DNA of 63,827 nucleotides, counting the filler, from Stramenopiles sp. TOSAG23-6 (taxonomy: Eukaryota): the NCBI GenBank assembly GCA_900128565.1. It is 3 parts of 3 records of this genome, joined end to end, with 100 filler letters (N's around TTAATTAATTAA, not from the genome) between each part and the next. Parts side by side here need not be neighbours in the genome. Positions count along the whole stretch, not along the records: positions 22,283 to 44,382 come from LT636019.1; positions 44,483 to 63,827 come from LT636050.1; 1 more part is not named here. One strand, written 5' to 3'. Each line of letters starts with the position of its first letter. Within the stretch, counting starts at the first letter, position 1. Position numbers and translations under genes: made by a program. Positions 30,505 through 63,827 of the stretch are shown here, piece after piece. The notes below the pieces were generated by a model, which made no database searches, was not told where the DNA came from, and saw only the letters and a list, made by a program, of their open reading frames with translations.

Positions 30505-32558
30505 ATGGATTCTGAGCATATATTCAATGGCATTGCTCAACAAGGGGCTCGAAAAGAGGGTGGAAGAGGCCGTGGAAGAGGTCATGGAAGTGGTCGTGGA
30601 AGAGGTCGTGGAAGAGGTCGCCGTGGAAGAGGTCGCGGTCGCCGTCACCATGCACAAAATGAAGTAAAACGTCACAATAGTGGTCACAAAAGAATTCGTG
30701 AGAGAAGTTACAGTTCATCCAGTCGTCAGGGTAGTCGTGATGCTCCGCGTACTGTAAAAGATCTGGAACAGCAGCTTTTTTCGCAAAATGTGCCGCAAGC
30801 ACGCAAAAAGAATAATAAAAAACGGAGGAAAAAAAAGAAAAATTCGTTGAATATTAATGTAAATTCTGCGAATAGTTCACAAAACAATGGCGTTCGGCGT
30901 TCACCTAGAGTAATTGCAAAAACTTTTCAGAACGATACTGAGATGCCGGATTTCACACCAACTATAAGTTCCGGAAAGAAAAAAGATTTTATGACTTCTT
31001 CTACTTTTGCTTCTTTGGACATTGACACGCGTCTAAAAAGAGGTCTGGCTGAAGTAATGAAATATGTCACAATGACACGTGTCCAAGAACAAACACTTCC
31101 AACTGCTCTAAGTGGAGTTGATTTACTTGCACAAGCTAAAACAGGGACGGGGAAGACTTTGGGATTTCTCATCCCTTCGATAGACAACGTCTTACGCTGT
31201 CGACAGCGTTTGAGTGGTGTTTCCATCATTGCAATTTCACCGACCAGAGAATTAGCTAACCAAATATGTACAGAAGCATCAAAGTTATTATATTTTCATC
31301 CTAATTTTAAGACGTGTTCAATGGTGGGTGGAACAAATAAAAAAACTGATATCAAACGTATCAAAAGTGGCATCGATCTTCTCGTAGCAACTCCTGGCAG
31401 GTTGATAGATCACTTGCAGTCAACTCCAGGATTTCGTGAGCAGTGTGCTAGTGTAAAAGTTTTGATTCTCGATGAAGCCGATCAAATGCTAGAGATGGGT
31501 TTCAGACCTGATCTTACACGAATTATTAGTTATTTACCAAAGGATAGGCAAAGTTTATTATTTTCTGCAACAATGCCTAAAAGTTTGATGGATGTGTGTA
31601 AAATTGCAGTTAAACATGATTATAAATATATCAATACAATACCAAAAGATCAGCAGCAGACTCACAAAAAAGTTCCACAAGCTGTTGTCGTTGCACCAGT
31701 GGATCAAATTACAAATATGGTTATGAAAGAAATCTCTATAGAGATGCAAAGGCATCCAAATAATTTTAAAGTCATGATATTTTTTGTGACTGCTCGTTTG
31801 ACCGGATTTATGGCAACTTTATGTCGAAAAGCTCGTATACCTACTATAGAAATGCATTCAAGAAAAAGTCAATCATACCGCACAAAAGCAGCCAAACAAT
31901 TCCGTGATGGAACAAAACTGGTATTGTTTACGTCTGATGTATCCGCGAGAGGTGTTGATTACCCTGATGTGACGCTTGTCATGCAAGTTGGTATGACTGA
32001 ACGAGAGCCTTACATGTATGTTTTATTTTTTTTCAAATTCGATTTTTTTTTCATACGAAATTTTGTACCTAACGAATTTTTTTTTGAAATATTTTTCTAA
32101 AATACATTCATCGTCTTGGTCGAACTGCTCGTGCAGCAAGTGGAGTAGAAGGTCGAGGAAAGCTAGTATTAGCCCCATTTGAGTCAAAATTTTGTCTTTC
32201 ATTACTTACTGAGTTACCTATACAATTTGAGACGTATGTGCCTTGCAAAGATACTCATCCAGAAGTTTTTACTCATGTGACTCGGATGCTGAATGATATA
32301 AAAAAAGATCCGGAAATGAGAAAAGCAGCTGCACAAGCGTATCAAGCATGGATTGGATTCTATAATGGTTACTTGCGAAAATTACGTTGGAACAAACCTG
32401 AACTCGTTCGCATGGGGACGGAATTTGCAAGGTCTATCAATGCATTGGACGTACAAGGAAACCCTCCAGCTCTTCTTCGACGAACTGTTGGGAAAATGGG
32501 ACTGAAAGGAATTCGTGGTCTTACGATTGTGAACTCACCAAATGATTTAGTCTACTAA
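30505..32558 (+). CDS. DEAD-box RNA helicase (Mss116/RH31-like) with RG-rich N-terminus; exons 30505-32015 and 32108-32558
   Basis: AKTGTGKT, PTRELA, TPGRL, DEAD, SAT, SARGVD; motif VI YIHRLGRTARA formed only after intron removal. Confidence 0.92.
32016..32107 (+). mobile_element. Repeat-family intron GT...AT (92 nt), close to consensus
   Basis: TAC AT|GTATG..TACCTAAC..AAAATACAT|T CAT CGT. Confidence 0.92.
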
Positions 32559-32784
32559 ATTTCTAAATTATTTAGAAAATGAAAAATATGTCGAATTTGA
32601 AAAAAACAAAAGTCAAAAAAAAGATCAAAAAAATGCTTGTGAGATACCTTACTTACTATATAGTTCAATCAAAATTAATGAAAGTTTTATATATAATATA
32701 TTATTCTTATAAATACACATATATCATTTTGTTTTTCAAGTCATTCTCGATATACCCATATCATAATCGATCCAGCAATTTTGT

Positions 32785-34678: not shown

Positions 34679-36466
34679 TTATGTAACTAACATTTTTTTA
34701 GCAAATGTGCTCATACAACAACCAAATGCCTGTATAGGTGAAAATGGGTATTTAAAATCTAGAGAATATACATTCCTTCTCACTTTCCCAAAACGAAGCT
34801 GTTCTGTATCAATCCCAAATTCACTTTCTAGATGACATGTGTTGTAAAAAAATATTTTAAAAATTTGAAATTCGTTAGGTATGGTATTTGGTACGAAAAG
34901 AATAAATTTGAAATTCATGATAAAAACGTACATGAACTTTCCACCTCAAGTAGAAAATTTTTTTTTGACGCTTTCTTTACACGACCATCAAAATTGAGAG
35001 TCCACGCATTCAAATCTTTATTCCATTTATTGTAAAAAAATATAAAAAAAAAATCGTTAGGTACAAAAGTTTCTATGAAAAAAAAAAAAAAAAAAGTCGA
35101 TATTATTTTGAAAACGTACACGATGGCTGTTTTGTACGAAATTGTAATAATTGAGACTGTTCTTGAACGCCCAAAGATGCATATTCATTTCTAATAACCT
35201 CCTTCTCACCTCCGGTAGGTTTCTCCTTTGTAATTCGATTTTTTTGTTCCATATCAAATCGGTCACAAAGACTCATAAAATTAGCTTTCAATGCATCTTC
35301 ATCATCATGACGTGGTAGTATCACTTTCATGTATTTTGGAAAAATATTTGAAAAAAAAATTGTTCGGTACAAAATTTCGTATGAAAAAATAAATTCGAAA
35401 TAAAAAAAAAATAAAACATACATCGAGTTTGGCACTCGGGCTAAGATATTAGTCTCAAAACGAATATGGATTAAATCGTGAGCAGCATATATTTTCAAAA
35501 ATACTTTACATTTTGATGTTTCTTTGTTAGGTACAAAATTTGGTATGAAAAAGATATTTATTCAATTTTGAAAAAAACGTACATGACTACTTTTCACCTT
35601 TAATTGAGGATTTCGTGCTCTATAATCAAAAAGAGAAAACTGCTTTCCAGTCATATTACTTATCATACACCCTAAATATACTGGACTTGACTCAGATGTT
35701 GGTATACTATCTATAGTTGTTAGCCTAAAAGTGTTATTAATTGTACTAAATATACAGAGACCCTTGTGCGTACTATTCATACTAGCAGCCATGTNTTCGT
35801 GAAAAAATATTTTTTTTTTGTCAAAAAGCTTGTTAGGTACAAAATTGTGTATGAAAAAAAATATATATTCATGATGAAAACATACATCATAAATTCGCCC
35901 GATTGTTTGTGAAAATGCCAAGCAGTAACAAACGCACCGACGTATCGACGAATATATCCTAAACACCATATATCAGACACGGAATCAGTTACAGGAGATA
36001 AAAATGTTGCCTTTTGTCCGTGCATTAGTTGGTGCAGACGCTGACCTTCTGGAACCTCAGCAAAGTCCGTTGTTGGTTTCTCTTTAAATATTCCTCGGAG
36101 CTTATTTGGATTATCTTTTATTGGTTCGCTTATTAAAGCATTACCCGTAGAGAGATCAAAGAGTTCATCTCCACTAGCAGAATACTCTTCGTAGGACTCT
36201 TCGTCGTCAGAAACATTATTTGAGCCTTCTTGAGAACTGTTATCCGAGTCTTTCTTAGAATCCTCAACATCTACAGTCACAAGTTCTGCCTGTATGTTGC
36301 TTTCTTTTACAGTGGGCGTACTTAATTTATTCACGTCTGTGCTGATTGGCTCACTTAGAATACCCTTCTCTACATTTGATTCAGTCTCTAAGGGAGCTGC
36401 GTTTAAATTAGTTTCGGCTACATCACCGAAAATATCCCAAACGTCATCGAACTTTTGATCTCCCAT
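34679..36466 (-). CDS. Tubby-domain protein with five repeat-family introns
   Basis: YLG...SN..G..F.LFD, FETNIL...P..M.V.LP, K.P.WN..L.AW.LNF.GRV..AS.KNF, FGKV....Y.LDF.YPFS..QAF.C. Confidence 0.9.
34837..34931 (-). mobile_element. Repeat-family intron GT...AT
   Basis: TCAT|GTACG..CAACACAT|GT; gives VESSC-HLESE. Confidence 0.85.
35025..35119 (-). mobile_element. Repeat-family intron GT...AT
   Basis: TCG T|GTACG..CAATAAAT|GG; restores the tubby motif KQPSWN. Confidence 0.88.
35329..35421 (-). mobile_element. Repeat-family intron GT...AT
   Basis: TCG AT|GTATG..AAAATACAT|G; gives PNSMKVILP. Confidence 0.88.
35487..35582 (-). mobile_element. Repeat-family intron GT...AT
   Basis: CAT|GTACG..AAAATATAT|GCT; gives KSSH-AAHDL. 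Confidence 0.8.
35791..35885 (-). mobile_element. Repeat-family intron GT...AT
   Basis: ATG AT|GTATG..ACAT|G; gives GEFMMAAS. Confidence 0.85.
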
Positions 36467-39750: not shown

Positions 39751-40943
39751 ATGCCAAAGCGCTGGAAGCGGCGACTCCGAACTCAAATGCGGTTGGCTCA
39801 CGAAGCCAATGCATTACGTGTTCCGAATTCTTCATTGAATAACTCAAAAGTGGTTGAATCAAAGCAGCCCCAGGAATATTTCCCACTTGACGAAAAAGGT
39901 GCTGCTCGTTTTCTTAATGTAGAAGCGATGTCGAAGTCAGATTCCCCTACTGATCTGACGTATCATAGTGCTGGATTACCCATATTATATGGTAGTTTAA
40001 TTGATCTTCCTATTCCTATTCAGGAAGGAAGTGCTGATCTCAAAATAAAGTTAGTCGCCACTGGGGGAGAAATACAGTATTCTGTATCTTGGGAGTCTCT
40101 CTGCCCAGTAAAGCATTTAGGTGTATCCCCTTCGAAAGTTCAGAAATACATTGAAAGTGAGACATCGCTTAAAAATTCTAATGAAAATTCTACAATACCT
40201 CCGAGTATTTTTGAAAAAGAAGAGTCACTAGAATTATTGCCCTTAACTAATCTGAAAGGTTCGGACAACATTTCCCTGTTTATTCCTAAAGCTGGTGTTG
40301 TTACATTACATGTGCAAAATAGTAGTACTACCTGGCCCGTAAAGGATGTACATTTTCAAAATTGAATTTCGAATTTTTTTTTTTCATAGAAAATTTTGTA
40401 CCTAACGATTTCTTTTTTTATCTACACTTTTTTTCACAATACATGATGATGTAGTATTACACTACGTTGTCTCTTTAGAACACATTTGTCCTTTGGTAAC
40501 GAAACGAAATATCATGTATTCACTTAAAAAGCAGTGTAACGATTTAAATTCGATATATCGTGATAGTCTTAGAGTTGTTGAAGAAAGTAGTCAAAATTTA
40601 GAAACACTTAGAAAGAAATTATGTATGTTTTATTTTTTTTTTTACAAAAAAATCGAATTTATTTTTTTTGAAAAATTTTGTACCTAACAAATTTAAGGTT
40701 TTTTTTTTNAAANATTTTTNCNAAANACATAACGCTGCTGAGATAGAACATGCTACGCTGGTGAATCGACTTACATTAGAGAAAGAAAGCATCGAATTAG
40801 TTCAAAGTAAACGAAATATAGCGTTGCTTGCAGGAATTGATATTAGAGATAAATTACTAGTTTTGCAGTACTTAACTACACGCGAAGAAAAGGTATGGAA
40901 TTGTGTATGTACAGATTGGCGATCTTATTGGTTCATGAAATAG
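39751..40943 (+). CDS. Hypothetical protein in three exons; second junction ambiguous
   Basis: ORFs 39751 and 40493 join exactly after removing 40348-40444; third ORF follows an n-containing intron. Confidence 0.55.
40348..40444 (+). mobile_element. Repeat-family intron GT...AT
   Basis: GAT|GTACA..TACCTAAC..CACAATACAT|GAT. Confidence 0.85.
40623..40730 (+). mobile_element. Repeat-family intron; 3' end contains ambiguous bases
   Basis: T|GTATG..TACCTAAC..cnaaanacat; frame is kept only if it ends at 40728 (AC). Confidence 0.6.
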
Positions 40944-41092
40944 TTGTATTTATAAATAAGTTCTCATATTTTTTTTATTTTTATAAAAAAAATCGTTAGG
41001 TACAAAATTATCTACGAAAAAAAATGTACAAAAAAAAATATATATATATTTTTATTGGTACAAATAAGATTATTCACTCACAGTAAGTGTTC

Positions 41093-41174: not shown

Positions 41175-43787
41175 ATTCTGCTTGTTTAGTTGGATTTCCA
41201 ATGCTTCACATTTTTCAGTCAAAATTTTATTTTGTTTCTGAAGTAAATTACGCCTTGAATTATATTCACATCTCGAACGTTCCATTCCCGTTTTGATCAT
41301 TTTTAGCATTTGAATTTGTTTTTTGCGTTCCTTACGTAATTTATTGACATCTTCCACAGCCGATTTTAATTGTTCCTTCATGTTAAATGCCTCTGTTTCA
41401 GCATTTTTGACCAATTTATATTGTTCATTTAATTTTTCTTCATAATATCTCTCTAATGCTTCTACACCATTTTGAACGCATTGAGACCCTCTCGTAGGTA
41501 ATGGCGATGTCACGGGAAATACCTCTTTTGGTCCATCTTTCCAGTTTGAAAAACATTCCGTTTTGTTTGTTGGCGTGTGCGCACAAAACGGACTTGTCGC
41601 TGTTTCTGTCATGTCTGGAAAATTTTGTTCTATACAGCCATTTCTTGATATTTCTCTCTTGGAAAGATGAGTACACACTTGAGACTGATTATTTATCCAA
41701 CGCATATATGAAGTTGCTTTTGTTCGCATACTATCCATAACCTGCGGTGGAACAGTATATATATATTGTGAAAAAATATTTTTTTTGTTTTTGTTTTTTG
41801 TTTTTTGTTTTTTGTTTAGGTACAAAATTTCGTGATAAAAAAAATGTAGATAAAAATTGAAAAAAAAAACATACACTCTGTTCGTTGACTCTATTAACTT
41901 GACTTTGTATGTATCATAACTACTACTATTGTTTCTATCTACGCAGCATATATTATAATATTCAATGACTGATGCTTCAAGAGTTACCATAATAGTACTA
42001 ACATTTTTTAGAGATTCTTCTAAGTTGGTGTTGCAACGTCTCACCTGCTTATTTACAAAAGTTTGTAGTTGCTCTTCCCGTAGCTTCAATAATGCACTAT
42101 TTGTGACTTCCTTAACGGCCAAAAGAAGTTCAATTATTGCGTTTAGTGTCGCTCGTGTAGTACTATTCATACATTTTGGAAAAATATTTGAAAAACAAAA
42201 CTTAAATTTGTTAGGTATAAAATTTCGTACGAAAAATAAATTCGAAATTGAAAAAAAATAAAACATACATTGACCAACGAGGATCACGGATATACGCATT
42301 TGTATCTTCCAACATATCATGCATACCTGGACGTATAAAGAATGAGATAATATTTTTTTTTCGACTTCTTAGAGTTTGTATTTTTGTTCCCAACTTTGAT
42401 AGAGATTTGGATAAAGCAATTTGGCAGTGTCTCAATTTTGGCTTTTCGGTTCGTCTGCCTTCTTCGTCCAACTGCAATTGTAAAAGAGGTAAAATTGCAT
42501 CAAAACCACGTGACGCATCACACATAGACATTGTTGGGTCTCCATTATTAGAATCTGTTTGTTGATTTTCTTTATTCAAGTCAATATATGTTGTATCAGT
42601 AGATAGATTATCTCCATAAGCAGCACCGACCCATGATGCTACAGTTACATGAAATTGGGATAATTTACTAAAATGTTCTGCAAGTGCTTCAGACACCCTT
42701 TGTGCAATAAAACGCCATTTATCGCGCAAAACATCCACAGTTTTACCAACAGCAGTATCAGAATTTGTGCTATCCTTCAAATTCGTACCGCCAAGATCTG
42801 TGCCTAAATGACGCTCTAACTGTATTTTTTCACGCCACAAGTGAACAAATTTAAACAATGTTTCACCAGCTGCAGTAAATACTTTAGCAACTTTCATAGC
42901 ATGAACCATTCTCAGTTGTCGTCCAGTTTCGTCAAATCTTGTGAAAAATATTTCAACAGTTTGATATTCGTTCAATATGAAATTTTTATGGTAAAAAAAA
43001 TTAAAATTAGGGTTCATGTATGATGAAAACTTACATGTTGAGGAAGGTTCCAGCAGGAGTGTCCTTGGTTCACAGAATCATCAAATGGAAGACGTTGCTT
43101 GACACGCAAGCGCTCGTGTGCCATCATATTTGTCATATGTTTGTTAATATTCTTCATATTTAATTCATTTAGCTCAAATTTTTCTTTAGTGTTTTGAAAC
43201 TCCTCGCTTTGGTCACTGATGCTTCGTTCAAGATTTTCTTTAGTACGTAAAAGTTTTTCGATAAGTTTTTGTTTCTCGACGATATCGGTCGCCATATTTT
43301 GGATGTCTTGAGCATTTCTTTCGTTTTGAGTTCGTGCTACTCGGCTTGCCTCATCAGCAAGTTTTTGGATATCAAATATCTTCATATGGCACCGTTCGTT
43401 TTCGTCAATCTTCAGTTTTAACTCTTCTAATACAACGGCCATTTCGTCTTTTAGTGTTTTTATAGTTGTAGCTTCCCCTGTAACTGAGGAAACAACACCT
43501 CCAAACCACGATGATTCTCCTTGCTTACGAAATTTGTCATTTTCATCCTGTAGTTTTTTTATTTTTCTCGTTAAGTTATCTTGATTTGTAGACAAGCGAT
43601 TAATTTCTTCAATGGACGCACAGAGCTCATTGTCTTTTTCGCGAAGTTCAACTTCCAAATCACCACTTCTTTCCTGTTCACGAAGCACAGCTTTCTTTAA
43701 CACAGAATGCTTTGATTTCACTCTATTATACTCACGCTTCAAGTCCAGATCAACAAGATGCTTACTTTTAGCATATGCTTTTGACAT
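41169..43787 (-). CDS. PPP1R21/KLRAQ-like coiled-coil protein with three repeat-family introns
   Basis: EYNRVKSKHSVLKKAVLREQ (KLRAQ-like), EELKLKIDENE..H, LPFDDS......WNLP.H. Confidence 0.75.
41761..41874 (-). mobile_element. Repeat-family intron GT...AT, 114 nt (3n, stop-free)
   Basis: AGA GT|GTATG..CACAATATAT|A TAT; read through by the ORF track as an F/K-rich insert. Confidence 0.8.
42169..42268 (-). mobile_element. Repeat-family intron GT...AT
   Basis: TCA AT|GTATG..AAAATGTAT|G; gives PRWSMNST. Confidence 0.85.
42934..43034 (-). mobile_element. Diverged repeat-family intron GT...TT
   Basis: CAT|GTAAG..CACAAGATTT|GAC; the nearby AG gives an immediate stop. Confidence 0.75.
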
Positions 43788-44330: not shown

Positions 44331-44382
44331 ATGTATTTTGGAAAAATATTTCAAAAAAAAAAAACTAAAATTTGTTAGGTAC
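44331..44382 (-). mobile_element. 3' half of a repeat-family intron at a contig end
   Basis: GTACCTAAC..TTGAAATATTTTTCCAAAATACAT. Confidence 0.8.
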
Positions 44383-44482
44383 NNNNNNNNNNNNNNNNNN
44401 NNNNNNNNNNNNNNNNNNNNNNNNNNTTAATTAATTAANNNNNNNNNNNNNNNNNNNNNNNNNNNNNNNNNNNNNNNNNNNN
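44383..44482. other. Assembly linker
   Basis: N44-ttaattaattaa-N44. Confidence 0.95.
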
Positions 44483-44534
44483 TACGAAATTTTGTACCTA
44501 ACAAATTTCGAATTTAATTTTTTTTACAATATAT
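44483..44534 (+). mobile_element. 3' half of a repeat-family intron at a contig start
   Basis: TACGAAATTTTGTACCTAAC..TTACAATATAT. Confidence 0.75.
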
Positions 44535-51028: not shown

Positions 51029-51257
51029 AGCATCGTTTCTTTTAGGCTGGGAATTTGAAAGTTTTTACGATAGTTTCATACGATAGCTTCATTTTATCTA
51101 CTCTATTTTTTGTATGTTATGAAAGACATAAGATGTAGATTAAAACATTTATCTGAACTATGGTCTTGTTGAAAATATATGGTACATACTTTTTTTATAA
51201 TAAAAAATATATCTTACGTGATACCTACTACATACTACTCCATACATCTTAGACAAA

Positions 51258-53653
51258 CTACAAAGGTATCTTCATTCTAGCAACAGAAACAGCATGATCC
51301 AGTAGAGTGCAATCTACATGATTAGGCAGTGTTACTTTTAATCTTGGCGTTCGTTTCATTTCACGTTTTATCGCATCTTCAGCATTATTATTTTTAGCCC
51401 ATGATCTACGAGAAATTCCATTGTTTACATCCCAGAGTAAGACACTCTTTGCACGTTCGGCAGCCTCTAACGTTCCATCCAATACAAGTCCAAATCCACC
51501 GTTAATAACCTCACCCCATCCGCAACCACCACCATTATGCAAAGCTACCCAAGTACATCCTCTAATAGCATCTCCGACAAAGTTTTGAACGGCCATATCA
51601 GCACAAAAATGAGAACCATCTTCAATATTACTTGTTTCTCTATATGGAGAATCTGTACCACTTACATCATGATGATCACGTGATAAAATTACAGGACCTT
51701 TCAACTTTCCCGATGCTATCGCTTCATTAAATGCCAATGCAATTTTTGTTCTACCCTCACAGTCCGCATAAAGTATTCGAGCTTCAGAGCCAACGACAAG
51801 GTTGTTACTTTCAGCATTTTCAATCCACATAATATTATCATTGAGCTGTGCAATTACTTTCGCAGGTGCAAGTTCCTTTTGCTCTGTCATTACTTGAGCA
51901 GCAATTGTATCAGTCATTTTCAAATCATCATGATTTAGACTTGTACATATATTGTAAAGAAATATTTTTTTTGTAAAATTTGTTAGGTACGAAATTTCGT
52001 ATCAAAAAAAAAATAAAATTGAAATAGATGATGAAAACGTACAAACCCATCGAAAAGGTCCAAAACCCAAAGAAAATATATCACCCATTATATCTTGAAC
52101 ATAAGAGGGATAACGAAAATTAATATTTGAATTATTTTCTTCAGCAGCATTACATTTCGTGTTTGTATTAACTTCTTCAGAGGAAACAATAGATACATCA
52201 GCACCAGCAGCAGCAGCTTCCTTTAAAAATGCATTTCCATAATCCCAAAAAAAAACTCCTTTTGAAGCTAAATTATTTATTGCATTCACCTGACGACGAA
52301 GAGATTTTTGGACGCACTCTTTAAACAATTTTGGATTTTTCACCATGAGTTCGTTCGATTCTTCTACAGATAAATCTACGGGGTAATAACCACCGGCCCA
52401 AGGGTTGTGGAGAGACGTTTGGTCTGAACCTAAATCAATCAGGACTTCTCCAGTTTTATCAGCAATAGAAGAAAATTTTTCCCAGACATCAACAATATTT
52501 CCATGGAAACCAATTGAAATAGATTCCTTTTTTGCTTTTGCTTCTCTCGTACGATGAATTAATTCATCAATATCAGTAATTTTTTCCAAGACCCATCCTT
52601 GCTCGTGTCTTTTATTTAAAGCATCTTCATTAACCTCACATAATATACCTACAGCACCACACACAACAGCAGCTTTGGCTTGTGCACCACTCATTCCACC
52701 AAGGCCAGAGGATAAATAAACTTTCCCTGATAAGTTGGATGACCCAAGATATTTACGACCAGCATTCAAAATGGTAATGGTGGTACCATGTATTTTGGAA
52801 AAATATTTCACAAAAAAATCGTTAGGTACAAAATTTCGTACGAAAAAACAATCGAAATTGAAAAAAAATAAAACATACATGAACTATACCTTGAGGACCA
52901 ATATAGCAATAAGAACCTGCTGTCATTTGACCATACATGGAGACACCCATACATTGTGAAAAATATTTCAAAAACTTGAAATTCGTTAGGAACAATATTT
53001 TTTTTGTACAAAAAAATAAACACAAAAGTCATGAAGATAACGTATAGAGCAAACATTTTCTCATAATCTTGTTTTGAACTATGATTTGGAATAACCATAC
53101 CATTCGTTAAGACACATCGAGGGGCACCAGAATGAGATGGATATATCCCTTGTGGGTGCCCAGAAGCCATAACAAGAGTTTGCTTATTATCCATTTGGCA
53201 TAAATAGTACATGAGTAAGTGATACTGTGCCCAGTTGCTAAGGACTTGACCATTACCACCATACGTAACAAGTTCATGCGGATATTGTGCAACACGATAG
53301 TCAAGATTGTTCATAACCATTAATATTATAGAAGCTGCTTGGTTACTCTCACATGGATATGTATCAAGTGGATAAGCTTTCATTTCATATTCTGTTGGTC
53401 GGAAGCGATACATGTATATATGACCATAATTTCGAAGTTCCTCCGCAAACTCTGGAGCAAGCTCAGCATGGAATTGAGACGGGAAATAACGGAGCGCGTT
53501 CGCAATAGCCTGCGATGTCTCTGATTTCGATAAGTTAGGCCGACGTTTGGGAGCGTGAGGCACTGATGAATCTCGTGACACAGGTGGTGGAAGAGGCGAT
53601 AATGGAATACCTGCAGGTAGAAGTTTTTTAAGAACAGAAGCAACGCAACTCAT
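51258..53653 (-). CDS. UROC1: Urocanate hydratase, eukaryotic type, with three repeat-family introns
   Basis: NNLD..VAQ.P.ELVTYGGNGQ, YGQMTAGSYCYIGPQGIVHGT, GLGGMSGAQ, DQTS.HN, DYGN, GFGPFRWVC, SRDHHDVSG, HNGGG. Confidence 0.97.
51947..52042 (-). mobile_element. Repeat-family intron GT...AT
   Basis: GTT T|GTACG..ACAATATAT|GT; restores GPFRWVCTS. Confidence 0.9.
52788..52878 (-). mobile_element. Repeat-family intron GT...AT
   Basis: CAT|GTATG..AAAATACAT|GGT; restores PQGIVHGTT. Confidence 0.92.
52949..53045 (-). mobile_element. Repeat-family intron with AT donor (AT...AT)
   Basis: GCT CT|ATACG..CACAATGTAT|G GGT; restores MFALGVSMYGQ. Confidence 0.85.
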
Positions 53654-54102
53654 CTTTAACTAATATTAAATATGGTTTCTATTCAATATCAAGATGGTAG
53701 AATAGTAATCAACCAAAAGACCAATTTTTAGAATCTCAACAGATTAGATTGAGATTGTTTTTTTTAGTAGGAACACATAAATGATGTCAACATAAAAACA
53801 CTATTCGATTTGAGATTGAGATTTCGTGATTTCCACGGTTTCGTGTAATTTCGCAAACAATTCTCACGTGTAATCTATTGTGTTAATTCTGTTTACCTAT
53901 GTTTTGTTTTTATCGGTTTTGATGTATTTACTTTGTTGTATTATGCATGTTTATTACTTATAAATAAAAATTGGCTTGCTAAAAATTTGTTTCACTCATA
54001 CAAATTCCATAGCTAATACCATTCAAAATAATCGGAGACTTTTACCAAAATTTCGATTTTTTTGGAGACTTTTACCAAAATTTCGATTTTTTTTTTCTTA
54101 CT

Positions 54103-55172
54103 TTAGCTAAATGGACTAGAAAAGTTATAGGCATCCGGGTCAACAATAGTGACTATATCACCTTTCGATTGTTTAATTTCAGATCCTGTGTCGCTCCACA
54201 TGTATAGTAAAAAATATTTGGAATTTAAATTTTTGTTAGGTACAAAATTTTCATACAAAAAAAAATTTTAATTTAAAATTTCGAAACGTACATCCATTTT
54301 TGACAAACTTCATTATATTCCCACACTCCAGAATGTGAATAATTTTTAAATTTTCGAGATATAGAAGGGGTAAATTTTCTTGGTTTGTATGAAAAATCAT
54401 CTTCTTGGCTATTCGGTGTTGAAACTCTTTGAGTAATAGGAGCACCCCATTTATCTCTTACAATAGTTTGTTGTTTTAATGAATTAGCAACTAAATTTTC
54501 ACGACGAACTTTTTGCAACTTTCTAAATTGCTGCTGAGGACTCAAATATTGTTTCTGTCTTGACATTTGTTTGTTGTTTTTAATTGTTCTTCTCTTTCGA
54601 TGTTTTTCAAATAATTCCATTTGTTTTCTTTTCTCAGTTTCTGTAAAGGATACACAATTATTCCATATTGTCTTTTTTAAAAGTTTAGGGTGATTTGGCA
54701 TTTCACCACCCCAGTGCTGTCTCTGAGGTTGCTTCGCTACTGAATCAAATAGACTTTGATCCAACTCAAATTTTGATGCTTTTGGCCTAAATTTCAGATT
54801 TTTGCGAGGTAAAACTTCAGCTCTGAAATTATATTTCATACCTTGCAAGGGAGGGTCGTTTGCCTTTTGTTGATTAGAACTATTAAAACATCTCTCATTT
54901 TGATTTCGTGTTGTTGTTGAATTCCAAAGTTTCCGTCGAACTTGCAAAATATCTTTTCGTTTTGATTGAAGGACATACTCTTTTGCTAATCGTGCTTTCT
55001 CAGGAATATCAGAGATATGAAAAACACTTTCATTCTTAGGGTAGTGGATTCTATCTCCACGACAACTTCCAATCTGAAACTTGGCCCGGGTAAAATCGTG
55101 AGTGCTTGAAGTAGAAACTTTCTTTTTAATAGGAGTTCCTCCGCTCAGACTTTCAATACTCCGACGAGACAT
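54103..55172 (-). CDS. Hypothetical basic protein; exons 55172-54292 and 54199-54103
   Basis: ORF continues HSGVWEYN..WM-WSDTGS..GD..T after intron removal. Confidence 0.7.
54200..54291 (-). mobile_element. Repeat-family intron GT...AT
   Basis: TGG AT|GTACG..TACTATACAT|G TGG. Confidence 0.85.
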
Positions 55173-55509
55173 TATTATTAATACTAGTAATTGATTCTTA
55201 TTCAAAAAATACTAGAAGCGTATCTTAATATTGTATAAAAGGAAAAATAGCGGGAAAGTAGATATAATATTGAAGGACTACTAAGTATTAAATTTTGTAA
55301 CCGTGACTGCCCTTGACTGGCTAAATAAATTTGAAATTCAACTGGAAATCGCGCGACTCGAGCGCGAGCGAGAGACCTTCAATCGTCGTCGTCGTCGCAA
55401 AAAAAAATTATCAAAGTCGAAGAGAGACTGCATAACAAACAAGAGTTTATAGTTGTTTCGCAAATTAGTAAAAGCGGCATATTATCGACTAATAGTTTGG
55501 CCATACACA

Positions 55510-56484
<975 letters not shown>

Positions 56485-56806
56485 TAATTTTTATTCACTT
56501 GGTGAAGTTTTGATTTTATATGTAATAATAATAATAATATTGCGTTTATTTTGTACGATTTCTTTTGTTTTTCTTTCTTATTTTTTTTTCCCAAAAATGG
56601 CACAAAGCTGTTAATGAAAAAAAAGAAAAAAAAAACGGAAATTTATAGAAAACGTATCATAAATACAGCAACAGCAACAAGTTCTCTCTTCGCCAGTACT
56701 TACACAAAGAAGAAGAATACAAAAGATTGTCACCAGTATTTATACAAAGAAGAAGAATACAAAAAAATCTCTCGGTTTTGAAAAAGTTGGCAACAACTTC
56801 AACTAA

Positions 56807-59455
56807 ATGCCTCGTATAACCGTAATCAAAACCGATGGTGTGATTGGTGATCCACTACAATCAATGGTTACATTATCTGAGCCTAGTATTCATAACTACA
56901 AACTAGCTGATAAAAACGCGGAGTCAGTCGAATTTCAGCAAATGGAAAATATGGTTCGCGGAAAGTATCTTGGTAGTCCTGTTTCGAAGAAAGCTTGGGG
57001 CGTATCACCACCAACGCATGCAGCTAGAGTTCGAAGTGCTTGGTCTAACCCAAAACCTCATAATAATCCGCAAAGTCCAAGGTCAAGGACTTTAAAAGTA
57101 GATAATTCTATTGATACTTTGGATTATAAGCACCCTTCTGTTTCAGCGCAACAAAGTCCGAGATTTCGTAAGAACAAAAATACAAACACCGACTTACTTC
57201 AAAATGAAAATGATATATCAGACCAACAAAATAAAAAACGAATGCGTAAGCCAATCACACGCAACGCGTGGGAGAATAAAACTTTTGAGCTTTCAACTAA
57301 ACAAACAATTTCAGAAAAAGTCAATGCTCTACAAGATATGTTGAAATCTCTTCAAAATGAACAAGAAGAAAATGAGCGACGCCAGCGAGAAACACTTATT
57401 CACTCTAGCGTTGAAGAAAAAGAATCTTTTGGAAATAGTGATCTATTAGAATCCAAGAATGAAATCTCTGATGAGGATATTAACCTTGACGCCTCTGAAG
57501 CGATAACAAATCCTCTGACTCAAATGAGTATAGGAGATAGAGAAAAAGATGCTGTATTTCAAGTATTACAAGCCACACTAAAACGTCACAGTCGTATCGT
57601 TGATATGATAATAGATGATTTAGAGTCTGCACTATCTGTATTAGATCCAGAAAAATCAGGTTATATTCCTGCTGAAATATTCAAAGAGCAACTTTTTGAT
57701 GTAGGTGTAGGTCTAGAAAAATCACAGTGCAATGATATATCTATACTTTTATCAGTAAAAGAGTCTTCGATAAATAAGATAAATGAAATATTACCTGAAA
57801 ATGATGTAATGTATGTGCATTACGAACCATTTATTAAATGTTTGCGTGATGAATATATTCGAATTGACCGGGAGAAACGTGCACGAAAAAAAACACAACT
57901 CATCAACAAAAATATGGCCGATATTAAAGACGACACAGAGTCTTCCACTTGGGCCTCGAAGATGCGTACCTGTTGGACGGATGATGAAAGTAAGAGATGC
58001 GATTTGTTCAAAGATGAGCAGAGGAAAATGAAGAAAAGAAATAGAAGTCATCGAATTACAATCCCGAAACCTTTCAGTTTTTGTCAACGAGACGATAAAG
58101 CCGAGGAAAGATGGATGGCACGAAAAGAAGAAATTTTTCAAGAAAGAGAAGAAAAACTACATAACGAAATTAGTGCAAATGGTGGGGTATTTCACGCAAG
58201 GTCTATTCCAAGAACAACAACAGATGCGTTGTATGAGAGAATCAAAGAAGATCAAGATAATNTGAGAAAAGAAAATATTCGAGCTAGAATTCAGTATCAT
58301 CAGAATCAAATCTCTGGATTTCCTGGAATGATTCTTCGTGATGAGACCATTGCTCAACGTAAAGCAAAACGGGAAAAAAAACGAAACGAACAAAAGCGTA
58401 AAGATAATACAAAAACAAAACAAATAGTAGCAAGACCTGCTCCTCAACGACCTGAACTATCCTTCGAAGAATTACAAGAGCAGAAAGAAGAAAGCAGAAG
58501 ACTTCGAATAGAACGCAGAGCACAAATTATGTTACATACATCTAAACTTCCACCGCGTATGCAATTACATGCGGATAAGATGAAATTAAAAATGGAAGAA
58601 GAAGAGTTAGATATTAAATCTAAACTAGACTCACATATACCAAAAACACGGAATATACCAAATTTTAGTCAACTTCATTCGCAGTGGGATGCAAAGAGGG
58701 CATCTCGTCGAAAGAATCACAAAGTAACAAAACCTAAACCTTTTTCATTTGAAAATGAAAAATCACGACGAAAGATTGAAGAGAAAAAGCGAAAGACACG
58801 AAGACATGAGCGTCTTAAAAGACAGGCGGAAAATACAACAAATACAAATAAAAGAGATTCATCAAAACCAAATCAAAACTCTGTAGATTCAGAGAGTTCA
58901 ATATCGTCTCCATTTTCATCTCATGTGCAAAATGTTCATCCAAATGTTTCAATGACAAGATCAATGGAATTACGAATGAACAAAACACATGAGCTTCTTC
59001 GAAAGCGCCAGAATGATATTGAAAGAGAAAAGAGAGACCAACAAGTAAGGAAGAAACGCGAAGAAGAGGCGAGGAAACGTATTACACCTATCATTAATGC
59101 GATGGAGTATAGAAGAACTCATCGAAGAGGTCACGTTACTCTTGAAATTGCAGAAAAAAAAGCAAGAGCAAAAGCTTTAAACTTTAAAGCAACAGCAAAG
59201 AAACAAATGGAAGATTTGAAAAAGCGCTTGGAAGAGAAGATTGCCCAGAGACCATTACTATTCGAGCGGGAAATGATTTCTGCACAAAAGCAAAAGGCTC
59301 GGATGGGAGCATTATCGTCAGCAGCAAATGCTATATATGGTAGAGATGTCGGTACTGCTGGTATTGATAGATCTTCGTCTTCTGATAAATTTGGAATTTT
59401 TGAAGAGGAAGAAAGAGAAATTCTAGGTGACCAAAGTGATAGCGATGAAGAGTAA
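56807..59455 (+). CDS. FAM161-like (UPF0564) centriole/cilium protein
   Basis: ITIPKPFSF, FHARSIP, RA..ML..S.LPPRM, P.F..LH, TKPKPFSF, RPLLFER. Confidence 0.7.
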   Translation: MPRITVIKTDGVIGDPLQSMVTLSEPSIHNYKLADKNAESVEFQQMENMVRGKYLGSPVSKKAWGVSPPTHAARVRSAWSNPKPHNNPQSPRSRTLKVDNSIDTLDYKHPSVSAQQSPRFRKNKNTNTDLLQNENDISDQQNKKRMRKPITRNAWENKTFELSTKQTISEKVNALQDMLKSLQNEQEENERRQRETLIHSSVEEKESFGNSDLLESKNEISDEDINLDASEAITNPLTQMSIGDREKDAVFQVLQATLKRHSRIVDMIIDDLESALSVLDPEKSGYIPAEIFKEQLFDVGVGLEKSQCNDISILLSVKESSINKINEILPENDVMYVHYEPFIKCLRDEYIRIDREKRARKKTQLINKNMADIKDDTESSTWASKMRTCWTDDESKRCDLFKDEQRKMKKRNRSHRITIPKPFSFCQRDDKAEERWMARKEEIFQEREEKLHNEISANGGVFHARSIPRTTTDALYERIKEDQDNXRKENIRARIQYHQNQISGFPGMILRDETIAQRKAKREKKRNEQKRKDNTKTKQIVARPAPQRPELSFEELQEQKEESRRLRIERRAQIMLHTSKLPPRMQLHADKMKLKMEEEELDIKSKLDSHIPKTRNIPNFSQLHSQWDAKRASRRKNHKVTKPKPFSFENEKSRRKIEEKKRKTRRHERLKRQAENTTNTNKRDSSKPNQNSVDSESSISSPFSSHVQNVHPNVSMTRSMELRMNKTHELLRKRQNDIEREKRDQQVRKKREEEARKRITPIINAMEYRRTHRRGHVTLEIAEKKARAKALNFKATAKKQMEDLKKRLEEKIAQRPLLFEREMISAQKQKARMGALSSAANAIYGRDVGTAGIDRSSSSDKFGIFEEEEREILGDQSDSDEE

Positions 59456-59564
59456 ATGATGATATGGGAGTTTTATTGTAAAATGTTCCAAATATAAAAC
59501 ATATTAATTACTAAAATATATTATAACATATATTTTAGTTTGTAATTCGTCTATTTTTGAATAT

Positions 59565-61922
59565 CTAATTTGTACTATTTACAGATTGATTCGATTTAAT
59601 ATGACTGCGTAAGCTGAACGTTTCCATTTTTCCAGTTACATGTTTCACCTGCATAGAGGAAAAACATTTCAATAACTCAGGAACATATGTTCTGTGTGTC
59701 AATTTTGAAGATACATTTTTACACTGTGGTACAGCAACAAAAAGTGTTGAAACCGACGTCAACCGATTTCTCAAAGTCTCAAATGCAGAACTTTGAGGTA
59801 AAATCATTAAAAGGCCGTACATAGATTTCATTAAATAAACATGTTGCATGCCACTACCATTGAGTAATTGTAGACGTAACTGTAAGAAAATAGGCGACTC
59901 TAAAAGTTGTACTAATTTGTCAATTTGCATTAAAAATCCAAGAGTAACATCCACTTGAGCAAATTCATTGATTAACTCAGAGGCTAAATGGTAATTTTGT
60001 GACAGCAAGCATAAACTAAATAAAGAAACAGGATTGTGACAAAACGACATATATAAGGTACGAAATATGGGGTATCCATCACCTTTCTCCCCTTTCTCAC
60101 AACTATGGCGTAATCGTTGACGAAGTTCAACTAATTCATCTGATGTGAGAAGAATTAAACTAAGACTTTGAATAATAATTCGTGCAAATGGGAGGTCATT
60201 TTCGTGTAAAAGAATCTTAGCTATTGTTGTATATATTTTCTCACTGTTCAGATGTAGACATAAATTTCTTATAATAAGCGATCCACGCTGTTCTAATAAA
60301 TTTCTATTTGTACGAAATAAACGAATTAAATCGGTTAAAACACGTTCAAAATGATCATCGCTCGATGCAATACGAGAAAGCATGCATTGTGAAAAATATA
60401 TTTTTTTTACTGTAAAACAATTCGTTAGGTACAAAATGTTTTACCAAAAAGAAAAAAAAAATGAAAGTAATGATGAGGGTTAGGGTACACTTCAAGATCT
60501 AACAAAACAACTTCATCTGAAGCATCCATCAAAATTTCATCTGTAAATATTGGAAACAATTCATCAATCATAATAAGAACTTGAGCTGAGTCTTTTTCAA
60601 GTAACATAGACACCCAAACATTGTGAAAAAATACATCAAATTTGAAAGACGTTAATAAACATTTCATTGGATATAAAACAATTTGATATACAAATAAAAA
60701 AAAATCAAATTCAAATGTGAAGTACAACTTAATGAAGCCATTCTTGTCATTTCAACAGGACTACTAAGAAAAGACTTGAGATGAAGCAATAATGGTTTAA
60801 AATTTAATACAGTTTCACTTTCCTTTACCAAGAGTAACAAATCTTCATTAGTTTGTTCAGCATTTTCACGAATTTCACGTTCTTCATCTGCCAGAAGTTG
60901 AGCAACTGCGTTCAATAATGTCGCGTACAACTTTTTTAGTCTTTCACCACCCAAGTGAATAATATCACGAATCCATTGTATTGCAGTCAAGTATTGTGAA
61001 AAAATATTTCAAAAAAAATCATTAAGTACAAAATTTCGTACGAAAAAATAAATAAATTCGAAATTAAAATGAAAACGTACAATCTGTTAAATCTCGCACG
61101 ACTAGAATTACATTGTTCCACAAGTATTTCAACTATTGGTGAAAGCTCAAGTGTTGATACATCACTTTGTTTGATTTCTTGAAGAAATTCACAAAGGGCT
61201 TGGTCTGCTTGTTGTCGAATTTCTCGAATATCATCACTAAGCATATTAAATAATCCTTCCAAGAAATTTGGTAAAAAATCCAACATATTTATAAATGGTA
61301 CAGAATCCAGTAGAACGACCCATCCAACTAAAAGTTGCCGGATATAAGGATTACGAGTTTTAAGCTTTCTTTGTAAAAGAGGAATAAAATGTTCAACTGC
61401 AAATGTGTCTGATTCTGTGACAATTTCTTTTATGAAACGATCAAGTAACTGTGCGCCATTCTTTACGTCGACATCAACATCAGAATATAACTCACAAAGA
61501 CCAGCAAATATTTCATTGAAATGACCAAGAATTCGTTGGCGAGCGACTTTGGCGATATTAAACAAAGCCTCACATGCGTAGTAACGAACTCGTGTTTCGG
61601 GGTCCTGAAAACAGTGAATTACTGGATTTAGTAATAAAGGTAAATACATATATATATCTTTCATTAAACCAATTGCAACCGCAGCTAACCCTATAAGCCC
61701 CCCCTTACGATGATTTGCACTAGCAGAACGCGTAAATTGATCACTTAATAGCTTTATTACACCTTCAATCTCTTTGGTCTTACATTCATTTGTTAGACTT
61801 TTTATTGTCGTCTCTACCGTTAAAGCCGCAGATTTGCGACGGTCATAAGAACGATCACCCAACATTCGCTGAACCTGCTCCGGAATAAGATCATATGATC
61901 TAGAATTCGCTGCGTCGACCAT
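59565..61922 (-). CDS. VAC14: VAC14 scaffold of the PIKfyve complex with three repeat-family introns
   Basis: L.DR.YD.RK.AAL, RKGGLIGLAA, RVRYYACEAL.NI.KVAR, V.NGA.LLDR, LLE.RGSLIIR.LC, QIDKLVQLLESPIF..LRLQLL. Confidence 0.97.
60382..60488 (-). mobile_element. Repeat-family intron GT...AT
   Basis: GAA GT|GTACC..CACAATGCAT|G CTT; restores DLEVLSRI. Confidence 0.88.
60616..60725 (-). mobile_element. Diverged repeat-family intron GT...TT
   Basis: AGT T|GTACT..CACAATGTTT|GG; restores RMASLSWV. Confidence 0.82.
60989..61080 (-). mobile_element. Repeat-family intron GT...TT
   Basis: AGA TT|GTACG..CACAATACTT|G ACT; restores NRLTAIQWI. Confidence 0.88.
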
Positions 61923-62244
61923 GGAATTAGTATTAACACTAGCGAATGAACTATGAAACAAGTAACTAACTACTTACAACGTATGCAACAGTTAGTACAC
62001 TATTATTTTAACTTCAATGATAAATAGGGTCTCTTGGGAGATTAGATCATAGTGGCCAAGCTCGACCGTATTGATTGACTACTTCTTCTACAGTCTTCTT
62101 GACAGTCTTCTTGACCATTCGCTCCAATAAATGAGGGTTAGGGTTTTAGATGGATGAATTTGAAAATTTCAAAATTCAATTTCCAAGGTTAGAATAAATA
62201 GCTTGAGCACGTAGGAGTTGATTTTGAAAAAATTATCAATAAAA

Positions 62245-63761
62245 ATGTTCCAAAGTAGTTTCACTTTTGGACCCGAACCTATTAACACATCAAAAGCAAA
62301 GCCAAATGTGCATGCTGATTACTACCTTGACAAAAAGTTGGGTTCTGGTACATATGGTTCAGTGTACCTCGCAAAGCGTAAAAAAGATGGATTACTGTTT
62401 GCTTGCAAAGAACTTCCAATAGGAAGGGTAAACAGTCTTGCAAGTCTCAATCATGAAATCAGTATAATGAAATTGTTGGACCATGAAAATATATGCTCCC
62501 TTATAGATCACTACCAATCTCGGTTATATGTTCATATTATTTTAGAATTGTGCAGTGGTGGTGAAATTTTCCAGAAGGTTGTTGAACAAGGAAGTCTTTC
62601 TGAATTTCACGCAATGTTTGTAGCACAACAGACTCTCCAAGCGCTTGAGCATTGTCACTCTAAAAATGTTGTTCATCGTGATTTAAAGCCTCAAAATCTT
62701 CTTTTATACGAAAAGGCAGAAAACATTGAAAATGCGACAATAAAAATTGTAGATTTTGGTGTTTCTAAATGTCTTCGAGATCGAACACTTTTACGAGAGG
62801 TAATTGGAACTGTGAGTTACATGGCTCCAGAAATATTCAGTAAAAGAGGTTATGGCCCAGCTGTAGATTTATGGAGTATGGGAGTTATATTATATCAGAT
62901 GCTTACTGGGGAAAAACCTTTTAGTAACAAAAGAGATATCATGGTAAATGTACGTTTTTATCATGAATTTCGAATTTAGTTTTTTTTCATACAAAATTTT
63001 GTACCTAACGAAATTTTTTTATGAAAAAAATTTACAATACATACCGTGGATTTCGATAAGCCTATTTTTAGAGTTCTATCACCCGACTGTCGTAATTTTC
63101 TCATGTGTCTTTTACAGAAAGATCCATCAAAAAGGCCTTCTGCCAGTGGTGCACTGCACCACCGTTGGTTTCAAATTCATTCAAATGAATTACCAATTCT
63201 TCCAAATTCGATCCTGGAAAGTTTGAAAGCTTATACAGCTCAGACTAGTTTTCAAAAACATTTAGTCCAAGTATTATCTGAAAAATTGTGTCTACGAATA
63301 CTTTATATTTTTTACAAAAGAATTATACAATATTCATTTTTTTTTTTAACCCTTTTTTTTAATCATTTGTATTATAATTGATACATTAAACACATTCTAT
63401 GGTAGTGATAAAATACATAATCAATTTAAACAAATGGATACTAATGGCGATGGTTTTATTGATATGCACGTACGTTTTTATCTTTCATTTTAAAAAAATC
63501 TTTTTTTTTTCATACGAAATTTCGTACCTAACAATGAATTTCAAATTTGACATATTTTCTACTCTACACGAATTACAAAACGCTTTATTGAACTCTAAAA
63601 ATGAAGAAACTGCAAATGAAGTATCTGTTCTCTTAGCAAGTGCTGACTTCAATTTAGATCACCGAATTTCTTATCGAGAATTAATGATGTCAGTCATGTC
63701 ACGTGCTTTATATTTACATTCTGATCGTCTAAGTGTACTGAGTGATAAAATCATGATAGAT
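62245..63761 (+). CDS. Calcium-dependent protein kinase (kinase plus EF-hands), 3'-truncated by window end
   Basis: LGSGTYG, ACK, ELCSGGE, HRDLKPQN, DFG, YMAPE; EF-hands DTNGDGFIDMHE and DFNLDHRISYRE. Confidence 0.9.
62950..63042 (+). mobile_element. Repeat-family intron GT...AT
   Basis: AAT|GTACG..ACAATACAT|ACC GTG GAT. Confidence 0.85.
63290..63386 (+). mobile_element. Highly diverged intron, probably the same family; boundaries approximate
   Basis: T-rich ~97-nt interruption ending GATACAT; needed to join the kinase tail to the EF-hands. Confidence 0.45.
63470..63569 (+). mobile_element. Repeat-family intron GT...AC
   Basis: CAC|GTACG..ACTCTACAC|GAA; restores a 12-residue EF-hand loop; AC duplicated. 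Confidence 0.88.
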
Positions 63762-63827
63762 GCAGGTTTAATTTTTTTTTCAATTTCGAATTTATTTTTC
63801 GTACGAAAATTTGTACCTAACGATTTT
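63762..63827 (+). mobile_element. Repeat-family intron truncated by window end; possible GC donor
   Basis: GAT|GCAGGTTTAATTTTTTTTTCAATTTCG..TTCGTACGAAAATTTGTACCTAAC aligns to the consensus. Confidence 0.65.

Follow-up and report, generated by a model that had tools for sequence, protein, structure and literature searches.

The element family and its host genes

A 63.8-kb stretch of DNA from Stramenopiles sp. TOSAG23-6 (63,827 nt including filler, hereafter the window, to which all counts refer) carries a family of short repeated insertions that interrupt its genes as introns without a 3'-terminal AG. The window is AT-rich (31–41% G+C) and gene-dense, with long open reading frames (ORFs) in the standard code, and the interrupted genes include those for a urocanase, Rab2, a DEAD-box helicase, a Tub-family protein, Vac14, an amino-acid transporter, and proteins with KLRAQ, FYVE, or kinase and EF-hand domains. 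A single-exon primase gene has its best named match in a EukProt coding sequence labelled GSMAST32... (96%), followed by matches of 52–53%, with named stramenopiles at 44–48%. Judged by this EukProt label and the occurrence in seawater, the host is probably a marine heterotrophic stramenopile.

The core motif of the element, TTCGTACGAAATTTTGTACCTAAC, is matched 21 times in the window with at most three mismatches, versus 0 times in 100 shuffles. As the original prediction had proposed, a hidden Markov model of the element was built (from 12 copies), and an nhmmer search with this profile at a threshold of E≤0.01 returned 37 copies in about 16 genes. Full-length copies with both ends set by the profile make up 26 of the 37 hits, to which copy 60382–60488 can be added once its 5' end is read by eye; six hits represent five copies that are truncated by the window ends or by two N gaps (a single copy gave the two hits 22027–22112 and 22116–22166), and four are short remnants. 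Two more diverged copies, 60616–60725 and 63290–63386, were found by eye. The 26 profile-defined copies together with the Vac14 copies 60382–60488 and 60616–60725 form the end-defined set (n=28), in which lengths range from 90 to 117 nt. The copies are diverse, the closest pair being 93% identical, the median pairwise identity 60%, and some pairs falling below 60%.

All 28 full-length copies lie in sense orientation inside ORFs, each at the point where an ORF of the same strand ends. The claim that the copies are always in sense thus holds for every full-length copy but not for the remnant 10335–10393, which is antisense to a NUDIX ORF. The central claim, a family of repeated introns without a 3' AG, is confirmed by the 37 copies and by the absence of AG from all 28 defined ends (0/28). 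Both window ends (1–86 and 63762–63827) and both N gaps (22183–22282 and 44383–44482, with TTAATTAATTAA linkers) lie inside copies, apparently because a very abundant repeat breaks the assembly. No Rfam family matched anywhere in the window, and a search of JGI metagenome contigs, IMG/VR, and GTDB genome contigs with the 24-base core returned no match; a 19-base pattern found seven loci in public collections, all of them chance matches confined to the core. The spacing of the copies showed no clear nucleosome-linker period by eye. The element also holds small perfect palindromes, namely TTCGTACGAA in the core (e.g., 32050–32059), TTCGAA upstream, and AAATATTT near the 3' end.

Three blocks are conserved in at least 90% of copies: G1 T2 A3 G5 T6-9; a T run with AAAT.T..TACCTAAC; and A.A.ATTTTT near the 3' end, with A-6, A-4, and T-1. 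Of these, the first two blocks look like the 5' splice site and the branch site of a spliceosomal intron, signals that persist even in diverged copies. The 5' end reads GTACGT in 12 of the 26 profile-defined copies, GTATGT in eight, and another GTNNNT in four, and the two added Vac14 copies start with GTACTT and GTACCC. CTAAC is present in 23 of the 28 copies, and the branch-type motif lies 32–52 nt from the end. Compared with major (U2-type) introns, the copies therefore have the 5' consensus and, by sequence, a branch-type motif, and lack the 3' AG.

Ends of the copies and exact removal

The ends were set by one rule, projected from the profile: the G of GTAYGT is the first base, and the second base after ...AYAC is the last. 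Six projected ends (45354, 61080, 63042, 14540, 44115, and 11914) were relocated by eye so as to coincide with the GTAYG / ...AYAC+2 motif; since the reading frame was taken into account when 11914 was placed, the frame test described below is not independent there. The 28 copies begin with GT (26) or AT (2) and end with AT (22), TT (3), AA (1), GT (1), or AC (1). In 19 of the 28, the dinucleotide upstream of the copy equals the last dinucleotide of the copy (permutation p=0.0006), and the same match is found for four of the six termini other than AT (GT with GT, TT with TT twice, AC with AC; p=0.0004). The restored target reads (C)AT/G, where the slash marks the joint, with A at -2 in 18/26, T at -1 in 23/26, and G at +1 in 16/26. 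The last dinucleotide, which varies between copies, represents a target-site duplication of 2 bp, and the GT-AT, GT-TT, GT-GT, and GT-AC introns of the original prediction, whose ends do occur, are therefore not separate classes but one class whose terminus is set by the duplication.

A junction was taken to pass the frame test when, after removal of all copies, it lay in an ORF that remained open over 30 or more codons in both directions. Removal by the end rule passes at 26 of the 28 junctions, and displacing the 3' end by ±1 or ±2 nt leaves just 4–5 of the 28 that pass. Copy lengths modulo 3 are 0, 1, and 2 in 11, 5, and 12 copies, respectively, so the copies are not in-frame inserts. No AG at all occurs between the branch motif and the end in 19 of the 28 copies, and if the first AG located 10 nt or more beyond the branch A served as acceptor, the frame would be kept in 10/28, which is the level expected by chance. 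Since the frame is blind to shifts of 3 nt, homologues were used to place junctions, and five of these are exactly collinear with them:

32016–32107 (+): DEAD-box helicase intron, GT..AT, 92 nt, flanks AT and AT; also passes the frame test
52949–53045 (-): urocanase element intron 1, AT..AT, starts ATACGT, 97 nt; DNA contig X2 record 6 spans the whole element
52788–52878 (-): urocanase element intron 2, GT..AT, 91 nt; RNA contig X8 record 27
51947–52042 (-): urocanase element intron 3, GT..AT, 96 nt, flanks TT and AT; RNA contig X8 record 26
56281–56379 (+): Rab2 element intron, GT..AT, 99 nt; RNA contig X7 record 22

The urocanase exons align to 6uek_A 7–201, 226–456, and, from query residue 3, 460–671. 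At intron 1, exon 1 ends at position 201 and 24 predicted residues fill 202–225; after intron 2, residue 1 of exon 3 aligns to position 226; and at intron 3, exon 3 ends at 456 and residue 3 of exon 4 is 460, with one split codon predicted, which fills the gap exactly. Against four homologues, the alignment is gapless at all three joints. The Rab2 junction EGVY/DVTNE is collinear with six homologues. The printed Rab2 translation, one codon short, ends in GGC and the full frame in GGCC plus stop, where homologues have C-C or CGC, and splicing to the first AG would give an unrelated tail in which the C-terminal cysteines are lost. In the DEAD-box gene, residue 1 of exon 2 (HRLGRTAR) aligns to residue 364 of 9ptu_C (DDX18), which places motif VI directly after the intron; residue 230 of exon 1 aligns to residue 353 and is followed by eight more residues and the split codon, and a one-residue length difference sits in an upstream loop away from the joint.

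The original prediction held that exact removal restores invariant motifs, and these alignments bear it out for GIVH/GT and FRWV-C-T of urocanase (6uek_A and homologues), GVY/DVTNE of Rab2 (six homologues), and YIHRLGRTAR of the DEAD-box protein (9ptu_C). The EF-hand DTNGDGFIDMH/E can be read directly, the invariant last Glu of the loop being the first codon after 63470–63569. For the tubby motif PS-W-N, the motif itself was placed by reading only, and what stands is the match of the exons after the intron to Pfam Tub, with 32 bits for exon 5 and 44 bits for exon 6, which identifies the gene with five copies as a Tub-family member. An exon-level PDB search with two exons of this gene gave no significant match.

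The public gene model of this urocanase, P0121 (window 51258–53659, minus strand), has identical exons but uses GT-AG pairs at all three element junctions. Compared with the four homologues and 6uek_A, it has 10 extra residues at copy 1, lacks 19 conserved residues and has two others altered at copy 2, and misses one conserved Ser at copy 3; judged by these alignments, the model mis-splices all three copies. P0121 also lacks three conserved segments of 23, 22, and 16 residues that are present in the homologues, and these look like spurious GT-AG introns.

The runs that hold the stretch are seawater metagenomes and metatranscriptomes, of which one DNA run and three RNA runs were compared, all as contigs. 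In an independent metagenome, three DNA contigs bridge four exon-element boundaries at a depth of 6.7–8.8, which equals that of the unique flanks: X2 record 6 covers the whole copy 52949–53045 and both flanks, and X2 records 4 and 2 extend 43 and 82 letters into copies. The poly(A) RNA contigs X7 record 22 and X8 records 26 and 27, which come from two studies, leave the genome at 56277, 51942, and 52786, and beyond the exon match they run on for 99, 134, and 84 letters that do not adjoin the exon in the genome. The allowed end points were computed for each model, counting letters that fit both sides of the joint, and all three contig ends fall at the leftmost place allowed by the end rule. The Rab2 end at 56277 is incompatible with the first-AG model and the urocanase intron 2 end at 52786 with the acceptor of the public model, and the intron 3 end at 51942 fits GT..AT but neither the GT-AG pair nor a cut shifted by -2. 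A canonical GT-AG joint of Rab2 is found in RNA as well (X7 record 21), which shows that the library contains mRNA of this organism. The original prediction had named absence of the insert from genomic DNA and splicing to a nearby AG as observations that would count against it; the DNA contigs retain the insert at flank depth, and the AG alternatives account for none of the three RNA contig ends. Among the searched proteins of 64–207 residues, no transcript-derived Rab2 of this species reached at least 90% identity, the best being 87%.

Element-rich bins have an about 1000-fold higher summed DNA depth than unique bins, a figure that is not a copy number and that hints at very many copies. Element bins (44540–63827) are high in RNA too (X5, 685–1794 versus about 1; poly(A) X7, 65–95 versus 1–5), possibly because introns are retained, because excised introns are stable, or because DNA was carried over.

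Canonical introns are also present, and the two kinds coexist in one gene, Rab2:

55808–55926 (+): canonical GT-AG intron of the same Rab2 gene, GTACGT...TGTAG; KLQ/IWDTAGQ collinear

At least four canonical introns (two in Rab2, 18301–18370, and 18667–18798), picked by eye from the output of a noisy heuristic GT-AG intron finder, stand against about 29 element introns, so the claim that most introns are AG-independent holds within the window. The canonical introns start with GTACGT, GTAAGT, or GTAATA and end in YAG. That at 18667–18798 (+) ends in TTTTCACAATCATAG, of which the 10 bases TTTTCACAAT are common to the 3' motif of the element, the intron being otherwise unlike it; this likeness may be fortuitous, or it may mark an old copy that has acquired an AG or a 3' signal general to the organism.

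The remaining copies in the window are the following:

35791–35885 (-): Tub-family gene, element intron 1; profile ends, passes the frame test
35487–35582 (-): Tub-family gene, element intron 2; profile ends, passes the frame test
35329–35421 (-): Tub-family gene, element intron 3; profile ends, passes the frame test
35025–35119 (-): Tub-family gene, element intron 4, GT..AT, flanks GT and AT; passes the frame test; the next exon begins at Tub profile position 185
34837–34931 (-): Tub-family gene, element intron 5, GT..AT; passes the frame test; the flanking exons match Pfam Tub 185–211 and 222–255
11531–11628 (-): amino-acid transporter gene intron, AT..AT, starts ATACGT; 268/309 open codons; Pfam Aa_trans on both sides
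11914–12030 (-): transporter gene, diverged element intron, GT..AA; 3' end by eye with the frame in view, the least certain boundary
14540–14647 (-): intron joining an SNF5-domain ORF to a PHD/bromodomain ORF; frame test 469/547 open codons; end adjusted by eye
40348–40444 (+): element intron, GT..AT; profile ends, passes the frame test
40623–40730 (+): element intron in a stretch with several N; fails the frame test (7/70 codons)
41761–41874 (-): KLRAQ-domain gene, element intron; passes the frame test
42169–42268 (-): KLRAQ-domain gene, element intron; passes the frame test
42934–43034 (-): KLRAQ-domain gene, diverged element intron, GT..TT; frame test 278/516 codons
44115–44227 (-): element intron, GT..AT; 3' end adjusted by eye; passes the frame test
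45354–45445 (+): FYVE gene, element intron, GT..GT, flanks GT and GT; end adjusted by eye; passes the frame test
45568–45657 (+): element intron near the end of the FYVE gene; 17 open codons downstream, fails the 30-codon test
49884–49976 (+): element intron; passes the frame test; an in-frame AG 9 nt downstream is a possible alternative; DNA contig X2 record 2 bridges the 5' boundary
54200–54291 (-): element intron; passes the frame test
60989–61080 (-): Vac14 element intron, GT..TT, flanks TT and TT; end adjusted by eye; passes the frame test
60616–60725 (-): Vac14 diverged element intron, GT..TT, flanks TT and TT; by eye, weak profile match; passes the frame test
60382–60488 (-): Vac14 element intron, GT..AT, 5' end GTACCC; passes the frame test
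62950–63042 (+): kinase and EF-hand gene, element intron; end adjusted by eye; passes the frame test
63290–63386 (+): strongly diverged copy in the kinase gene, GTCTAC...GATACAT; missed by nhmmer; GT..AT removal frame-consistent, read by eye
63470–63569 (+): element intron within the EF-hand loop, GT..AC, flanks AC and AC; passes the frame test
1–86 (-): copy truncated by the window start; profile match
22032–22182 (+): copy with an internal partial duplication that runs into the N gap; profile match
44331–44382 (-): 3' part of a copy adjoining the N gap; profile match
44483–44534 (+): 3' part of a copy on the other side of the same N gap; profile match
63762–63827 (+): copy truncated by the window end; starts GCAGGT, not GTAYGT
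10335–10393 (-): remnant antisense to the NUDIX ORF; profile match
20349–20404 (-): short remnant between genes; profile match
28929–28987 (-): short remnant downstream of a minus-strand gene; profile match
40989–41027 (-): short remnant downstream of a minus-strand gene; profile match

Three of these copies deserve a comment. Removal of copy 14540–14647 fuses the SNF5 and the PHD and bromodomain ORFs into one frame of more than 1000 codons (window 12899–16054, minus strand). The GCAGGT start of copy 63762–63827 is a possible GC-type 5' site. The NUDIX ORF 10281–10484 (+) stays open through the remnant 10335–10393 and reads ...FSAPVFSTENHQKKSLGTKYGTKINKFEIHDENHHVWGLTGYVL... there; the remnant may have become exonised, or it may form an antisense intron that is in frame. 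The ...ATAC end of the element reverse-complements to GTAT.

Proposed removal of the copies and its alternatives

We consider it likely that the copies belong to a transposon-derived introner that is removed by the spliceosome at a 3' site that is defined by position and does not depend on AG. The mobile element, which is short (about 90–117 nt) and non-autonomous, would insert in DNA and generate a 2-bp target-site duplication, mostly AT in (C)AT/G. It would bring its own 5' splice site (GTAYGT) and, 32–52 nt before its end, a branch-type motif (TACCTAAC), which would make it an introner. The first cut would fall before the G of GTAYGT and the second two bases past the conserved ...AAATATTTTTYMCAATAC end, so that the element is removed together with one copy of the duplication and the original frame is restored. 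With the second cut two bases past a terminal motif, the 3' site would be set by position, and the last bases of the intron would be those of the target site. We infer that the major spliceosome performs the cutting, with a relaxed or re-targeted second step. The earlier introner reading is thus supported in both of its parts, a multi-copy intron-making element and exact AG-less removal.

Several observations weigh against this reading. The terminal inverted repeats (GTA...TAC) comprise just 3–4 bp, which is weak for a cut-and-paste transposon, and no transposase was seen in the window. Removal does not pass the frame test at two of the 28 junctions, of which one is in a stretch containing several N and the other 17 codons before a stop, and in 10/28 the first AG lies downstream and in frame, so that the frame alone permits its use. 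The RNA evidence consists of the end positions of the first pieces of the contigs. Finally, the perfect duplications (19/28) also permit cuts 2 nt further left, with AT..AC ends, and it is one intron alone (51947–52042) that decides for GT..AT over such a shifted cut.

This last point concerns spliceosomal removal with both cuts two bases further 5', whereby duplication and element together would form an intron with mostly AT..AC ends. The pairing of AT and AC as first and last intron bases is tolerated by both spliceosomes. AT precedes 16 of the 28 copies; ATAC stands before the last two bases in 11 of the 26 profile-defined copies and another NNAC in six more; and for the 19 copies with perfect duplications, the mRNA would be the same under both readings. 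However, the 5' end would then vary (AT, GT, TT, AC, GC, CT) ahead of a conserved GTAYGT, and at 51947–52042, where the flanks differ (TT versus AT), the RNA end at 51942 fits GT..AT only, although this is a single data point. We therefore regard the shifted cut as unlikely, if the least unlikely of the alternatives.

A dedicated non-spliceosomal excision, in which an endonuclease acts on paired ends and a ligase joins the exons, as for tRNA or introns of the HAC1/XBP1 type, appears somewhat less probable again. With an AT duplication, the ends could form AUGUA/UACAU with cuts staggered by 2 nt across the helix, and a 3' cut indifferent to base identity would be accounted for. Nevertheless, the helix is merely 3–6 bp long. 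RNAalifold on the 26 profile-defined copies gave no consensus pairs and no conserved secondary structure, and six single-copy folds were inconsistent, with z-scores from +0.76 to -3.05 and ends that pair over 3–6 bp only. Moreover, the duplication helix is impossible for TT or AC duplications, whose frames still hold, and the conserved GTAYGT and CTAAC would be left unexplained.

The minor (U12-type) spliceosome, or a transformed version of it, tolerates varied 3' terminal dinucleotides, including GT-AT, which would leave the 3' dinucleotide free. The motif TACCTAAC is one indel from the U12 branch consensus, TCCTTAAC, and GTATGTTTT agrees with GTATCCTTT at 7/9 bases. U12 introns have the 5' consensus RTATCCTT and a branch-to-end distance of about 10–26 nt. 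Thus, the element resembles the U12-type introns without AG in that the 3' dinucleotide is not strictly read, but it differs in the 5' consensus and in the branch-to-end distance: 12 of the 26 profile-defined copies start with GTACGT, without the ATCC core, and the branch motif lies 32–52 nt from the end. The canonical GT-AG intron of Rab2 has the same GTACGT donor. We give processing by a minor spliceosome a small chance.

Ordinary GT-AG splicing to nearby AGs, yielding proteins with small indels, has a smaller one still. The public model P0121 does use such sites in all three urocanase introns, and the first AG is in frame in 10/28 copies. The in-frame AGs, however, do not exceed chance, the choices of P0121 add, delete, and change residues relative to the homologues as detailed above, the Rab2 alternative lacks the C-terminal cysteines, and splicing to these AGs would produce none of the three RNA contig ends, so that this explanation is largely refuted for four introns.

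Elimination at the DNA level from an expressed nucleus, like that of ciliate internal eliminated sequences, is the least credible: excision is exact, the copies have a short flanking direct repeat, and some eliminated sequences of transposon origin typically show a 2-bp duplication, but the window's own assembly and metagenome contigs of another study (at unique-flank depth) hold the inserts, the element retains a 5' splice site and a branch motif, and the host stands among stramenopile flagellates by its proteins, a group in which nuclear dualism is not known.

Relation to known introns and significance

Introner elements were reportedly treated by Huff et al. in 2016. In Micromonas, Aureococcus, and many marine protists, introners have GY-AG ends with rare GC or GA 5' sites and produce duplications of 3–9 bp (Gozashti et al. 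2022, PMC9860276). The family described here is like these in being short, non-autonomous, and multi-copy, in its genic insertion with target-site duplication, in leaving mRNA length unchanged, in carrying one or both splice signals, and in its origin in marine plankton, where introners are frequent (PMC9860276). It differs in that the 3' end is never AG and that the 2-bp duplication provides the last two intron bases (PMC9860276). The introners of Amoebophrya have no terminal consensus, direct repeats of 3–5 nt, and hairpin inverted repeats of 8–20 nt, and they fall into many families (Farhat et al. 2021, PMC7789003). Shared with them are repeated non-GT-AG introns, direct repeats over the exon/intron boundaries, and the failure of gene predictors, a likeness to miniature inverted-repeat transposable elements having been suggested there (PMC7789003); here, by contrast, there is one family with a conserved GTAYGT and branch motif, a 2-nt repeat, end complementarity of 3–4 bp, and no consensus fold.

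In Fritillaria borealis and related tunicates, 95% of introns are non-canonical, the core spliceosome is kept, and divergent U2AF paralogues recognise 3' ends (Soo et al. 2026, PMC13326754). As in our window, introns there do without the AG rule, and their U2AF paralogues offer a concrete model of what may take place at the introns described here (PMC13326754). In that animal lineage, both ends are non-canonical, whereas the introns of the present family keep a canonical 5' end and are unconstrained at the 3' end alone. The nonconventional introns of euglenids are defined by a stable structure that holds both ends close to each other, lack a 5' consensus, and occur alongside conventional introns (PMC4770533). 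They share variable non-canonical borders, exact removal, and the presence of conventional introns with the family described here, which differs in its strong 5' consensus and in the lack of a conserved structure (PMC4770533). The comparison that the original prediction had suggested, with Micromonas, Aureococcus, Amoebophrya, Fritillaria, and euglenids, thus finds that all of these differ from the family in the window.

In the main texts of the literature on marine introners, MAST-3, stramenopile non-canonical introns, and Incisomonas, no description of this family was found. The main texts of single-cell genome papers on this protist group do not mention such introns, and those of introner surveys do not mention MAST, one survey being also without stramenopiles; these surveys rely on annotated introns. 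Within the literature searched, this would apparently be the first introner family that creates AG-less introns with the other signals kept.

Standard gene finders mis-model genes of this kind, as the three wrong junctions of P0121 illustrate, and gene counts, 'pseudogene' calls, and completeness scores for the group may consequently be biased. For MAST-3 single-cell assemblies, low gene counts have been reported, and for one of them 'advanced pseudogenization' of dynein heavy-chain genes (PMC5778133). If AG-less introns were common in MAST-3, these calls may need rechecking, which is speculation at this point.

We see an about even chance that splicing in this lineage places its second cut by reference to a terminal motif carried by the intron itself, two bases beyond ...AATAC, so that any dinucleotide can end an intron, and that a mobile element used this signal to seed thousands of introns. 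Few signals in eukaryotic gene expression are as constant as the AG at the end of introns. If the proposed reading is true, factors of 3' recognition or of the second step (U2AF-like, Slu7, Prp18, Prp8) would have changed, or an element-specific adaptor would exist, and this free-living protist would represent a natural experiment on the choice of the 3' splice site.

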